From Alphaproteobacteria bacterium (GTDB lineage Bacteria > Pseudomonadota > Alphaproteobacteria > VGEJ01), in NCBI GenBank assembly GCA_965219135.1, contig CBDCMV010000002.1, positions 737,092 to 801,091 on the forward strand: 64,000 nucleotides of DNA, read 5' to 3'. Position numbers and translations under genes: made by a program. A model generated the notes under the pieces. The model was not told the origin of the DNA, searched no databases, and saw only the letters and a program-made list of their open reading frames with translations. This document shows, piece by piece, positions 2,894 through 8,419 of this stretch (positions are counted from its first letter, which is position 1; every line of letters starts with the position of its first letter).

Positions 2894-3598
2894 TCAGTGC
2901 TCGCCGCCGCCGCCGCCGACAATCTTGGCCAGCTCGTCGTAGTTGAAACCGGGCTTCTGGCTGGCCCCGATCATCACCGCCTCGACCGCGGCCTGCCGCT
3001 CCACGGTTGCCGGAATCTCGCGCACCATCTCGGGCGGGACGACGACCGCGCCGTGCCGGTCGGCGTGAATGATGTCGCCCGGCCGCACGACCATGCCGGC
3101 GACGGTCACCGTGACCGCCCACTCGACGCAATGGACGAACGCGTGGCTCGGCCCGATCGAGCCGGCAAGCATTTGAAAGCCCTCGGCGCACACGTCGATG
3201 TCGCGGATCGAACCGTCGGTGATCACGCCCAGCGAACCCAGGCCCTTGTGCACGTTGGTGTGTACCTCGCCCCACCAAGCACCGTAGCCGGGGCTGGGGT
3301 CGAGGTCCTGAATCACGGTCACCGTCGGATGCGGCGCCGCTGCCACGTGGGCGTAGTAGGCAAGCCGGGATTCCCGCTCGGTATCGGCGCCGCGCTCGGA
3401 CCGATGCAGCGCACGAATCGTCGCCGTGCGCGCGTAGCCGACGATGGGTGGAAGCTCCGGCCGCGGACACACCAACGGCTTGGTCGTGTAGCCGAACCCA
3501 TGGCGTTCGGGCACCAGCGGCTCGAGCGCGTTGCATATGGTCGGCGTATCGAAGGCGCGTAGCGCCTCGAGATCCGCGGCGCTCAATTTGATTGGCAT
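2894..3598 (-). CDS. RraA-family protein (RraA / 4-hydroxy-4-methyl-2-oxoglutarate aldolase-like)
   Basis: [26 protein letters not shown]...[24 protein letters not shown] upstream of the ATG at 3598. The first 23 codons of the track ORF are an upstream extension. Confidence 0.75.
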
Positions 3599-3713
3599 GG
3601 CCCCCTCCCTTGGATGCGACGGCGGCCGCACCTTTTCATGGTCCTGCGCTCGATGTCGAGAGCGCATTCGCCGCGGGCCAGCGCCCCGGCGTGCCCGACC
3701 CCGCTTCGCCGAT

Positions 3714-4346
3714 CTATTTGGTGCCGTAGAGGCGGTCTCCGGCGTCTCCGATACCGGGCACGATGTAGCCGTGGTCGTTGAGCCGCTCGTCCACCGCGGC
3801 GGCGAACAGCGGCACTTCGGGGTGCGCCCCGTGGAAGGCCGCGATGCCCTCGGGCGCGGCCAGCAAGCAAACGAACTTCACCGCGCCGGCGGCGTCCTCC
3901 TTGAGGCGCTGGACCGCGGCCACCGCCGAGTTGCCGGTGGCCAGCATCGGATCGACGACGATCACCTGTCGCTTCTCGAGGTCGGTGGGCACCTTGTAGT
4001 AATACTCCACCGCGACCAGGCTGACCGGATCACGGTAGAGCCCGATATGGCCGACCGGTGCGCTCGGCAGCAGGTCGAGCATGCCATCGAGAATGCCGGT
4101 CCCCGCGCGCAGGATGGAGACGATGCAAAGCTCCTCGCCGCTCAGGACCGGCGCCTTCATCGCGGCGATCGGGGTCTCGATCTCATGCTCGGTTAGCGGC
4201 AGGTCGCGGGTCACCTCGTAGGCCAACAGCAGGCTGATCTCGCGCAGCAACCGCCTGAAGTCGGCGGGCGGGGCGTCCTTGCGGCGCATCAGCGTCAATT
4301 TGTGCTGGACCAGCGGGTGATCGACGATGGTCACGGCTTGCGGCAT
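3714..4346 (-). CDS. upp: Uracil phosphoribosyltransferase
   Basis: 210 aa with the canonical UPRT sequence ([12 protein letters not shown]...[12 protein letters not shown]...[17 protein letters not shown]). TAG stop. Confidence 0.9.
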
Positions 4347-4376
4347 GGAACGATCCTTCCCCGGGCTTGCCTCACA

Positions 4377-5684: not shown

Positions 5685-6833
5685 GGGCGGGGACGAGGGC
5701 GTCCGGAATCGGCACCCGCTCGACGATCTCGATGTCCTGGCGGACGATCGCGTCGTGCTTTGAATCGCTCATCGAGACGAAGCGGTCGATGCGGCGAATG
5801 CCGAGCCAGTGCAGGACATCGGGCATCAACTCTTGAAACCGCACGTCCTGAACGCCGGCAATGCACTCGGTGCGCTCGAAGTAGGCCTCGGCGCGATCGC
5901 CGCCAGCCTGTCGCTTGCGCGCGTTATAGACCAGGAACTTGGTCACCTCGCCCAGTGCCCGCCCTTCTTTGCGGTTGTAGACGATCAACCCGGCGCCGCC
6001 CGCCTGCGCCTCGGCAACGCACGCCTCGATACCGTGAACCAAATAGGGGCGGCAGGTGCATATGTCGGAGCCGAATACATCCGAACCGTTGCACTCGTCG
6101 TGGACCCGACAGGTCAGGCGTCGTCCGGGATCGGCGATCGCGGCGACCTCGCCGAAACAGTAAATGGTGATGCCGCCGATTGGCGGCAGGAAGATCTTGA
6201 GATCGGGCCGGGTCACCATTTCGGGGAACATGCCGCCGGTCTCCTCGAACAGCGAGCGGCGCAGGTCGTTCTCTTCGATCGCGCAGCGTCGCGCCACGCC
6301 AGGCAGATACCAGACCGGCTCGATGGCCGCCTTGACGACCCGGGCTTCACCGTTCTCGCCGAGTATTTCGCCGTCGGGCCGAAGCCGTCCGGCGGCGATC
6401 GCCTCCTTGAGTTCGGGCAGATGGATGCGGGCCCGGGCCACCGCGATGGTTGGCGGATGTTCCAACCCTCGGCCAGCCGCTCGCCGAAGACCTCGCTGAC
6501 CAAGTGGCCATAGGGGTCAAGCGAGACGATCTTGTCGACGTCCGCCCATTCGGAATGCGGGCCGATGGCTGCCGCGGGCGCGGTATCGGTGAGATCGGGC
6601 ACGTGCACCCGGTCCAGGCTGCCGGCGGCAACGGCAAGCGCGCGGTAGAGCGCGTAACTGCCGGCATGGGCCCCGATCGCGTTGCGTCGCGCCGGATCGG
6701 TGAGTGAGCCGATGATCGGACCGCGTGCCTCGGGCGTAGCCGCGCCCCACTCCACCGGGGGCGGCTCGTGCGCGCCGGACCGGGGGTGCGAGGTCAGGAC
6801 GATGTGTTTTTGGGGGCTCTTGTGATTGCGCAT
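5626..6833 (-). pseudogene. URC1-like GTP cyclohydrolase II-family protein (N-terminal GTP_CH_N domain plus C-terminal cyclohydrolase II domain), split by a frameshift near 6465-6500
   Basis: C-terminal 279-aa ORF carries the zinc motif CRVHDECNGSDVFGSDICTCRPYL. The N-terminal domain (MRNHKSPQKHIVLTSHP...RNAIGAHAGSYALYRALAVAAG...SEVFGERLAEG) is in the -1 frame upstream (track ORF 6213..6938, start at the ATG at 6833). Confidence 0.65.
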
Positions 6834-6943
6834 GGCGTGCGGCGCCTGGGTTCCCGACCATACAGCGAATCCACCAACCGGTACACCGGACGCCCCGCGC
6901 GCGTGGCGTTGACACCGCCTTTTGCCGGCCCGTAGCATCGCGC

Positions 6944-8419
6944 ATGAATCTCGATTCCAGCGACGAACTCAGGGACCTTCAGGCGTTCGACGACCCCGTG
7001 GCGGCGATCGATCGGGTTACCGAGATCTATGTCGAGGGGCGCGCGCTCCTCAAGGAGCATTTCGACCGCTTTGTCGGCGGAGAGCGGAACGTACCCAAGG
7101 TTGACGCCTGCTATCCCTACCTGCAGCTCAAGGTGGTTTCGGTACCGGCGGGAGGCGCCCGGGGGCCGCTTTCCTACGGCGCCGTCGCCGAACCCGGCGT
7201 CTATGGCACCACGCTCACCGAGCCGGCGCTGTTCCGCAGCTATTACGAGGAACAAGTTCGCCTCCTGATCGGCAGCCACAATGTGCCGGTCCGCGTCGGC
7301 ATCTCGAATCGGCAGATTCCCTTTACCTTCGCCCTGGAGGAATTGACCGCCGACCTCGACGCCGAAGGCGTCGCGCGGCTGCCCGAGGCCTTCCACCTGC
7401 CCGACCTGTCCGAGATCGACGACCGCATCGCCAATGGCGCGCGGCAGAATGGACAGGGCGGCGTCCGCCCGCTCTCGCTCTTTCCCGCCGAGCGCGTGGA
7501 CTATTCGCTATCGCGTCTCCGCCACTACACCGGCACCGCGCCGGACCACTTCCAACGCTTCGTCCTTTTCACCAACTATCAGCGCTACGTCGACGAGTTC
7601 GTCGAGTACGGCCGTGACGCGGTGACCAACGGCGCGGAGTTCCGTGCCTTCGTCGAGCCGGGCAACGCGGTCCGAACCAATGCGCGGCTGACCGACGTGG
7701 CGTCCGGGGGCACGCCGGCCGAGAAACTGCCGCAGATGCCGGCCTATCACTTGGTCAAGGACCGTCACATGGGGGTCAGCCTGATCAACATCGGGATCGG
7801 CCCCTCGAACGCCAAGACCATCACCGACCACGTCGCGGTGCTGCGTCCCCACTGCTGGCTGATGATCGGCCACTGCGGCGGCCTGCGCCGCACCCAGCGG
7901 CTGGGCGATTATGTTCTGGCCCATGCCTACGCGCGGCTCGATCACGTCCTGGACAACGATTTACCGCCCGTGGTTCCCATTCCCGCCATCGCCGAGGTGC
8001 AGGTGACGCTGAGCGACGCGGTCGCGCGAATCACCGGCCTCGAAGGCGCGGAGATGAAGCAGCGCCTGCGCACCGGCACCGTGGTGACCACCGACGACCG
8101 CGACTGGGAGCTTCGCTACGACGAACTCGCTACCTTCTTCAACCAATCGCGCGCCATCGCCATCGACATGGAATCGGCGACCATCGCGACCAACGGCTTT
8201 CGCCTGCGCGTGCCCTACGGCACCCTTCTCTGCGTGTCCGACAAGCCGCTCCACGGCGAGATCAAGCTGCCGGGCATGGCCAACGCGTTCTACCGCGAGC
8301 GGGTAAGCCAGCACCTGAAGATCGGCCTTGCCGCGCTCGACGAGATGCGCGACGACGTCACGCGCCAAGCCCTGCACTCACGCAAGCTCCGAAGTTTCGA
8401 CGAGCCCGCGTTTCGCTGA
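6944..8419 (+). CDS. amn: AMP nucleosidase
   Basis: 491 aa. N-terminal AMN domain plus PNP/UDP phosphorylase fold (GIGPSNAKTITDH...IDMESATIA). Confidence 0.85.
   Translation: MNLDSSDELRDLQAFDDPVAAIDRVTEIYVEGRALLKEHFDRFVGGERNVPKVDACYPYLQLKVVSVPAGGARGPLSYGAVAEPGVYGTTLTEPALFRSYYEEQVRLLIGSHNVPVRVGISNRQIPFTFALEELTADLDAEGVARLPEAFHLPDLSEIDDRIANGARQNGQGGVRPLSLFPAERVDYSLSRLRHYTGTAPDHFQRFVLFTNYQRYVDEFVEYGRDAVTNGAEFRAFVEPGNAVRTNARLTDVASGGTPAEKLPQMPAYHLVKDRHMGVSLINIGIGPSNAKTITDHVAVLRPHCWLMIGHCGGLRRTQRLGDYVLAHAYARLDHVLDNDLPPVVPIPAIAEVQVTLSDAVARITGLEGAEMKQRLRTGTVVTTDDRDWELRYDELATFFNQSRAIAIDMESATIATNGFRLRVPYGTLLCVSDKPLHGEIKLPGMANAFYRERVSQHLKIGLAALDEMRDDVTRQALHSRKLRSFDEPAFR

Follow-up and report, generated by a model that had tools for sequence, protein, structure and literature searches.

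We analysed a stretch of 64,000 nucleotides from an Alphaproteobacteria bacterium (NCBI GenBank assembly GCA_965219135.1, contig CBDCMV010000002.1, positions 737,092 to 801,091 of the forward strand), which we call the window, and focused on a cluster of three minus-strand genes of the URC type of uracil catabolism. The gene content was determined from a listing of the open reading frames (ORFs) together with Pfam and NCBIfam profile scans. The first gene of the cluster is urcA (5626..6833), which encodes a URC1-type UTP cyclohydrolase with the domains GTP_CH_N and GTP_cyclohydro2 and is frame-disrupted. It is followed by a DUF1688 gene of the URC4/urg3 type (4377..5600, 407 aa from a TTG start; PF07958, E = 4e-140) and by upp, the gene for uracil phosphoribosyltransferase and the equivalent of URC6 (3714..4346; Pfam UPRTase, E = 1e-74). 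An RraA-like gene (2894..3598, minus strand) lies after upp, and amn, the gene for AMP nucleosidase (6944..8419, plus strand), is transcribed divergently from urcA. An earlier note on this DNA had placed the same five genes at these positions and had assigned the three cluster products to the URC1/UrcA, URC4/DUF1688 and uracil phosphoribosyltransferase (UPRT) families. Strong Pfam and NCBIfam profile matches bear out the positions, and Pfam, NCBIfam and PDB matches bear out the families. The profile searches which the note had proposed found PF07958 on the DUF1688 product, GTP_CH_N on the cyclohydrolase and UPRTase on the upp product, and none of them spoke against these assignments.

The upp product is of the short 210-aa type and scored above the cutoff for two NCBIfam equivalogs (NF001097, 276 bits, cutoff 114; TIGR01091, 259 bits, cutoff 208); a ribosome-binding site (GGAAGGA) precedes its ATG by 7 nt. 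The same note had described overlapping genes and a DUF1688 protein of 435 aa, and neither description held. The 435-aa ORF is the longest that can be read, but it is over-extended: its ATG lies inside the 3' end of urcA and its first 28 residues are urcA read out of frame. The start at TTG 5600 is backed by the N-termini of homologues and by the gene call on a sister contig, L001, an ENA metagenome contig of 569 kb (ERZ25067264) which encodes exactly the same Upp protein. As DUF1688 starts at TTG 5600, the three genes do not overlap and are closely spaced. The urcA stop and the DUF1688 start are separated by 25 bp, the DUF1688 stop and the upp start by 30 bp, and the upp stop and the RraA start by 115 bp. 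An exact database look-up returned no match for the 435-aa ORF or for Amn; the 407-aa product of the TTG start has a record.

The identity of UrcA was established on the intact orthologue in L001. Its product matched PDB entries 7EJ3 and 7EEV at E = 1e-170 over residues 6-399 with about 70 % identity, and reached 718 bits against NCBIfam NF005536 (cutoff 403). The entries 7EEV and 7EJ3, released in 2021 and 2022, are both titled 'UTP cyclohydrolase'; the titles were retrieved by Foldseek with an AlphaFold2 model that is poor (pLDDT 57.6) and served for this retrieval only. L001 UrcA thus shares with the crystallised bacterial enzyme the GTP_CH_N and GTP_cyclohydro2 domains, a near full-length alignment, the zinc-binding cysteine triad and the catalytic tyrosine and arginine, whereas the copy in the window is broken by a 1-bp deletion and the intact form occurs in the sister contig only. 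The zinc ligands C248, C259 and C261 together with Y303 and R332 align with C54, C65, C67, Y105 and R128 of RibA, the GTP cyclohydrolase II of riboflavin synthesis (PDB 2BZ0), and are invariant in 20 homologues. The two families therefore have in common the catalytic domain, the zinc site and the catalytic Tyr/Arg pair, and presumably also the chemistry of ring-opening hydrolysis and pyrophosphate release. In contrast to UrcA, RibA lacks the GTP_CH_N domain of about 200 aa, and the context of urcA is one of pyrimidine genes and not of riboflavin genes. The RibA equivalog models scored far under their cutoffs on UrcA (TIGR00505, 48 bits versus 205.85; NF001591, 56 versus 148) and we conclude from these scores that UrcA is not a riboflavin enzyme, even though the family label in the databases is still 'GTP cyclohydrolase II'.

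The bacterial UTP cyclohydrolase UrcA is described by Zhang et al. (ACS Catal 2021;11:8895), as cited in a passage on the URC pathway in PMC12507026. A passage of a review describes UrcA as carrying out a two-step hydrolysis of UTP in uracil breakdown, and a follow-up paper on the mechanism is cited there (PMC9499338). The earlier note had called the biochemistry of both URC1 and URC4 unresolved. For URC1 this does not apply, because the cyclohydrolase matches a crystallised and characterised bacterial UrcA at E = 1e-170; for URC4 the statement stands, as we found no biochemistry or enzymology of DUF1688/URC4 in the searchable literature. The claim that the bacterial clusters are essentially unstudied is likewise contradicted by the two UrcA structures, and Andersen et al. 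2008, as quoted in a passage of PMC3869809, had already pointed out that URC1 and URC4 are conserved in bacteria. In short, the gene calls of the earlier note are right and its novelty is overstated, since URC1 is solved and the bacterial conservation has long been known: the locus in the window is a member of a known URC module.

To describe this module across bacteria we scanned one genome per GTDB species with a DUF1688 pattern. At least 600 stretches matched and at least 597 of them were confirmed. Among the matches listed, 80 loci from Alpha-, Beta- and Gammaproteobacteria, Cyanobacteria, Myxococcota and Planctomycetota formed the sample for synteny; neighbours were counted by tblastn with the window proteins, and the denominators are the loci with enough flanking sequence. 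Counting co-oriented neighbours only, DUF1688 has urcA immediately upstream in 69 of 73 loci and upp downstream in 61 of 77; the complete triad is present in 56 of 71, which confirms that the three genes are conserved together. The RraA-like, Amn, amidase and Fpg-like proteins encoded next to the cluster in the window were found by tblastn within 8 kb in none of the 80 diverse loci, and these genes are thus local neighbours only. When all ORFs of the loci were clustered, the recurrent additional neighbours were a Bmp/PnrA-type nucleoside ABC transporter (binding protein in 10 loci, ATPase in 24, permease in 11) and a cytosine-deaminase-like Amidohydro_3 protein (15 loci); some cyanobacteria also carry a ureidoglycolate-lyase-like protein. 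The transporter and the amidohydrolase fit with a role in pyrimidine use. From the tblastn counts and the ORF clustering we conclude that the conserved unit is a three-gene operon, often joined by genes for pyrimidine uptake or deamination. Eight Microcoleus-type cyanobacterial loci (L035, L044, L046, L053, L055, L057, L058 and L061) have a 360-aa protein with an adenylate/guanylate cyclase domain encoded between urcA and DUF1688, at about 6892..7974 in most of them.

The DUF1688 product aligns to positions 2-420 of the 420 positions of PF07958 and its NCBI homologues carry the name 'URC4/urg3 family protein'. Searches of NCBIfam and of the PDB sequences with this protein gave no functional lead. 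We therefore turn to structure: an AlphaFold2 model built from 19 homologues has a pLDDT of 91.2 and a pTM of 0.90, and a Foldseek search with it returned only chains of Qng1 (E values from 5e-9 to 2e-7, target-normalised TM scores of 0.72-0.77). The likeness extends over the whole fold and is not confined to a single domain, and the predicted model has a helix-hairpin-helix (HhH) type fold with the insertions and the C-terminal tail that are specific to Qng1. Qng1 converts queuosine-5'-monophosphate to queuine and ribose-5-phosphate. Its proposed nucleophile is D231, its ribose ligands are K199 and the carboxylate at its own C-terminus (after Y323), and Y232 and K233 are in contact with the 5'-phosphate; a tag at the C-terminus inactivates the enzyme (PMC9881137).

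We compared the short motifs of both families using the PDB sequences and the profile alignment. In the resulting register VPFHK277LxQWL of DUF1688 corresponds to VRFYK199RAQIL of Qng1, LAE308-Y309-R310 to FAD231-Y232-K233, and LD110AGAGxxW117 to LD69AVNFCFW76. Lys199 of Qng1 is thus kept as K277, while by sequence register the invariant glutamate E308 would take the position of Asp231. Of the 80 species, 79 have the motif [AP]EYRN and 79 have P[FL]HKL[ST]Q, and in 79 of 80 the C-terminus reads ...SDGT[V/L/I]F with the stop codon directly after it. Judged from the aligned sequences, DUF1688 keeps the features with which Qng1 binds ribose-5-phosphate, with Glu as the acid where Qng1 has Asp and with other residues at the base-specific positions, as one would expect of an N-glycosylase that releases another leaving group. 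There are clear differences from Qng1/DUF2419 (PDB 7U07, 7U91 and 7UGK) as well: the identity is only 16-23 %, DUF1688 is about 85 residues longer, it has Glu for the catalytic Asp231, and its predicted leaving group is urea and not queuine. The Pfam Q_salvage profile (PF10343) reached 16.8 bits on DUF1688 with a gathering score of 25, and it was found at a sub-threshold level over residues 273-361 in 13 of 19 homologues.

Taken together, the families and the motifs suggest the following flow. Upp would convert uracil and phosphoribosyl pyrophosphate (PRPP) to UMP, and housekeeping kinases would raise UMP to UTP. UrcA, as a Zn-dependent GTP cyclohydrolase II homologue with an extra N-terminal domain, would open the uracil ring hydrolytically and remove the part from C4 to C6. 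By analogy with RibA it would also release pyrophosphate (PPi) and leave N-(5-phosphoribosyl)urea and a C3 fragment; from RibA chemistry we take the products to be 5-phosphoribosylurea, malonate semialdehyde and PPi. DUF1688 would then act as a Qng1-type helix-hairpin-helix N-glycosylase and cut the bond between ribosyl and urea, yielding urea and ribose-5-phosphate. Glu308 would stand in place of the catalytic Asp of Qng1, and the binding of ribose-5-phosphate would fall to Lys277, Tyr309, Arg310 and the free carboxylate that follows Phe407 at the C-terminus. Since a reaction of the cyclohydrolase-II type leaves a 5'-monophosphate, 5-phosphoribosylurea would be the natural substrate of DUF1688, and urea and ribose-5-phosphate the natural products; we infer both substrate and mechanism. 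The RraA-like gene and amn would be bystanders. We consider it likely that the region is a bacterial URC module, organised as a urcA-DUF1688-upp operon, in which UrcA and a Qng1-type DUF1688 act in this order.

Two eukaryotic systems are close to the bacterial one. Of the URC pathway of Lachancea kluyveri (URC1, URC4, URC6, URC3,5, URC8 and URC2) the homologues of URC1, URC4 and URC6 are all present in the window, and the proposed flow from uracil through a nucleotide to ribosylurea (or its phosphate) plus a C3 acid, and on to urea, is the same (PMC7530994). Genetics show a requirement for the three families in L. kluyveri, and in that model URC4 is assigned to the step from ribosylurea to urea on the basis of yeast genetics (PMC7530994). 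Unlike in L. kluyveri the three bacterial genes form one tight operon, and the bacterial upp product is of the short type. In Schizosaccharomyces pombe the same three families are physically clustered as urg1 (cyclohydrolase II family), urg2 (UPRT-like) and urg3 (DUF1688), and are induced by uracil (PMC2174524). These are eukaryotic genes which are separately transcribed and co-induced. No urea amidolyase (URC3,5), URC8-type reductase or URC2 regulator was found among the roughly 30 ORFs scanned with Pfam, which cover part of the 64-kb window; they could be encoded in another region of the genome.

The disruption of urcA was located by comparison with L001. In the window the N-terminal part of the gene is read in the frame 6452..6833 and the C-terminal part in the frame 5626..6450, both on the minus strand. 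Positions 1-121 of the GTP_CH_N profile fall in the ORF 6213..6938, and positions 121-193 together with GTP_cyclohydro2 in the ORF 5626..6465. The site lies at 6449..6454, where a CCC run of the coding strand is short by one C: on this strand L001 has cgcCCAacc where the window has cgcCAacc, and the plus strand reads ...GGTT-GGCGG... in the window, with the gap after 6451, and ...GGTTGGGCGG... in L001. The urcA gene of L001 is uninterrupted and encodes 402 aa with both domains on a single product, whereas the public gene call on the window's own 1.03-Mb contig is a 271-aa fragment. A pairwise alignment of L001 with window positions 1..13243 gave 99.93 % identity with eight substitutions and one indel, and this sole indel in 13,243 aligned bases is the urcA frameshift. 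Apart from it the two urcA copies differ at two positions only, 6000 and 6663. Four of the substitutions in coding sequence are nonsynonymous and two synonymous, seven of all eight are GC in the window and AT in L001, and one in L001 changes a near-invariant glycine of UrcA to serine. This pattern implies changes unfiltered by selection, either very recent mutations or consensus noise; the differences look like unfiltered mutations or consensus errors, not like a long-standing divergence of strains. We also weighed programmed -1 frameshifting at the lesion, by which R-P-T-I-A would be restored, and discarded it: C CGC CAA does not have the form of a slippery heptamer, and the near-identical strain simply carries the extra base.

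Two further relatives are informative. The closest distinct one, L083, has 87 % nucleotide identity to the window and the same gene order. In its DUF1688 gene (9229..10467) a TGG is changed to TAG at 10084..10086, which falls on the invariant Trp281 within the predicted catalytic motif (HKLAQ*LTY). As a consequence of this TAG the gene is called as two pieces of 285 aa and 121 aa; the urcA gene of L083 is intact. The UrcA of L084 is 80 % identical; there upp comes directly after urcA at a distance of 72 bp (8001..9908), and no DUF1688, RraA or amn gene was found within 8 kb of the pair. Either DUF1688 is dispensable in L084 or encoded elsewhere, or the pathway is truncated.

Several observations weigh against the proposed flow, and most of them concern DUF1688. 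The link to Qng1 consists of a predicted structure and short motifs. A HMMER profile of DUF1688 did not match Qng1 among the PDB sequences, and hhalign of DUF1688 against an alignment of two Qng1 sequences gave a probability of 5.7 %, although both profiles are shallow and the register was sensible. For this reason our homology claim is based mainly on the structure comparison and, as PF10343 stays below threshold too, we regard DUF1688 as a structural relative and not as a member of the Q_salvage family. The position of Glu308 relative to C1' is taken from the register of the sequences. D207 and N72, which affect the function of Qng1, are not conserved and correspond by register to S285 and A113. 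Beyond the fold, the searchable literature offers no DUF1688 enzymology, the UrcA products come from the RibA analogy, and among the ORFs scanned in the window there was no urease, urea carboxylase or 3-hydroxypropionate/malonate-semialdehyde gene, which implies that the downstream steps are not local. Finally, yeast genetics name ribosylurea and not its 5'-phosphate (PMC7530994), and L084 carries urcA and upp without DUF1688 nearby. The last two points together with the Asp-to-Glu change and the loss of D207 and N72 could also be explained if DUF1688 acted at a different step: its substrate might be unphosphorylated ribosylurea or a ring-opened ureidoacrylate ribotide, or it might be a partner of UrcA with no catalysis of its own. 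We regard this as unlikely. K199, Y232, K233 and the C-terminal carboxylate of Qng1 all have counterparts conserved in 79 of 80 species, chemistry of the cyclohydrolase-II type leaves a 5'-monophosphate, and the modelled fold matches as a whole an enzyme that prefers a 5'-nucleotide. The suggestion that we are dealing with a plain RibA of the riboflavin pathway, in a cluster unrelated to uracil, has in its favour that sources continue to label the UrcA family as GTP cyclohydrolase II. It is refuted by the scores of the RibA models, by the presence of GTP_CH_N, by the closest solved structures, which are titled UTP cyclohydrolase, and by the near-universal linkage to upp and DUF1688, and we give it hardly any credence.

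The same relatives bear on the extent of the module and on the state of urcA. The earlier note had counted the RraA-like gene and amn to the surroundings of the cluster; they do adjoin it here, but they lie outside the conserved module and are syntenic only in the closest relatives. The order of amn, divergent from urcA-DUF1688-upp-RraA, is kept in L001 and L083 only. One could still see in this order an extended nucleotide-catabolic island, the more so as Amn, like the predicted DUF1688 reaction, gives ribose-5-phosphate from a nucleotide. We judge such an island very improbable: neither these two genes nor the amidase and Fpg-like genes were found at any of the 80 diverse loci, L084 has no RraA or amn, the gap of 115 bp between upp and RraA compares with 25-30 bp within the triad, and an order kept at 87 % nucleotide identity simply reflects shared ancestry. 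The note had further taken urcA to be frameshifted and freshly inactivated. The frameshift is present in the sequence, one base short of L001, while the fresh inactivation is not supported; we leave it undecided because it rests on a 1-bp indel in a homopolymer, in a contig assembled from a metagenome. Either the pathway no longer works in this strain, or a sequencing error removed the base and the organism has an intact and working URC operon. A consensus error of a long-read metagenome assembly would account for a single base missing from a homopolymer (CCC to CC) as the only indel in 13.2 kb relative to a 99.93 %-identical contig with an intact gene, for urcA copies that otherwise differ at just two positions and for the remaining differences that look unfiltered by selection; the names of related contigs indicate a coverage of about 10x and 13x. 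On the other hand three bases are few for a homopolymer error, several IS transposases are close by, and the lineage has real lesions outside homopolymers, namely a TAG and a multi-base deletion in pip, seen in two assemblies, and the TGG to TAG change in DUF1688 of L083. A real mutation and a sequencing error thus stand at about even odds. We put forward a more far-reaching proposal, which we hold tentatively and regard as possible: DUF1688/URC4 would be an unrecognised sister family of the Qng1 N-glycosylases that uses Glu for the HhH Asp and its own C-terminal carboxylate and hydrolyses 5-phosphoribosylurea; separately, this alphaproteobacterial clade may repeatedly lose the pathway (the urcA frameshift here, the DUF1688 nonsense codon in L083 and the absence of DUF1688 in L084).

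The genes around the cluster were characterised as follows. The RraA-like product has 234 aa according to the gene call on the sister contig and matches PF03737 at E = 9e-18; every NCBIfam match of this protein was under its cutoff. The amn product has the Pfam domains AMNp_N and PNP_UDP_1 and scored 696 bits against the NCBIfam AMP nucleosidase model NF006142 (cutoff 307). Downstream of amn on the plus strand are an amidase gene (8435..9808; best NCBIfam match under cutoff) and a gene for an Fpg/Nei-like glycosylase (9811..10713). These three genes are packed with gaps of 15 bp and 2 bp and form an unusual apparent operon; the string is also kept together in L083.

As the earlier note had stated, amn and urcA diverge across a shared region of 110 bp: the ATGs are at 6833(-) and 6944(+) and the spacer comprises 6834..6943. 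It contains a sigma-70-like promoter sequence facing amn (TTGACA-18-TAGCAT at 6909..6938, plus strand). The amn-proximal half and a near-palindrome, CCGGTGTACCGG (6860..6875 region), are conserved between the window and L083, and the rest has diverged. The near-palindrome is a possible operator; no regulator gene is adjacent. No RNA element or riboswitch with an Rfam match at gathering score was found in window positions 1..14000, which include the spacer, and a terminator scan gave nothing above the expectation from shuffled sequences.

On the other side of the cluster, directly after the RraA-like gene, lies the pseudogene pip (1950..2889, minus strand; proline-iminopeptidase-like, Abhydrolase_1). 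Two lesions, shared by the window and L001, interrupt it: a TAG in the reading frame (GLA*AITHP, near 2532) and a frame-breaking deletion of several bases near 2075. By read-through, the tail of pip has become part of the ORF (838..2508) of the periplasmic binding protein that comes next. The pip gene of L083 is intact (315 aa). A reassignment of TAG, which the TAG codons in pip of the window and in DUF1688 of L083 might bring to mind, was ruled out: urcA and DUF1688 end at TAG, and pip also carries the out-of-frame deletion. In a chimeric ORF at 12322..13689(+) an aldo/keto reductase (AKR; aa 19-305) runs in frame into an aromatic amino-acid lyase, of which the C-terminal third is present (aa 306-453). 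The alignment to L001 ends exactly at the junction, near 13243, and L001 continues with a complete AKR and then amidohydrolase genes; the ORF is either the product of a deletion or rearrangement, or an assembly chimera. Two DDE_Tnp_1/DUF772 transposase genes lie at 19926..20969(+) and 30261..31619(-), and similar transposases adjoin the URC cluster in L083 and L084. The transposases and pseudogenes suggest an IS-active, decaying region of the genome.

In itself the locus in the window adds little, as its first enzyme is already solved. The urcA-DUF1688-upp operon is found in at least about 600 bacterial species, and the window holds one more, possibly damaged, copy. For the families the analysis has two consequences. 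It corrects the label of the urcA genes that are listed as 'GTP cyclohydrolase II' in the databases. Of wider interest is that a Qng1-type mechanism is predicted for URC4/DUF1688, a prediction which we did not find in the searchable literature. The step taken by URC4/DUF1688 has stayed undefined within the URC pathway since 2008, and the match of its modelled fold to Qng1 yields a specific and cheaply testable hypothesis: DUF1688 would be a metal-independent HhH N-glycosylase with 5-phosphoribosylurea as its substrate, in which Glu308 and Lys277 are critical and an untagged C-terminus is needed. If true, its placement as a sister of Qng1 would close the gap in URC enzymology at the last dedicated step of the pathway.

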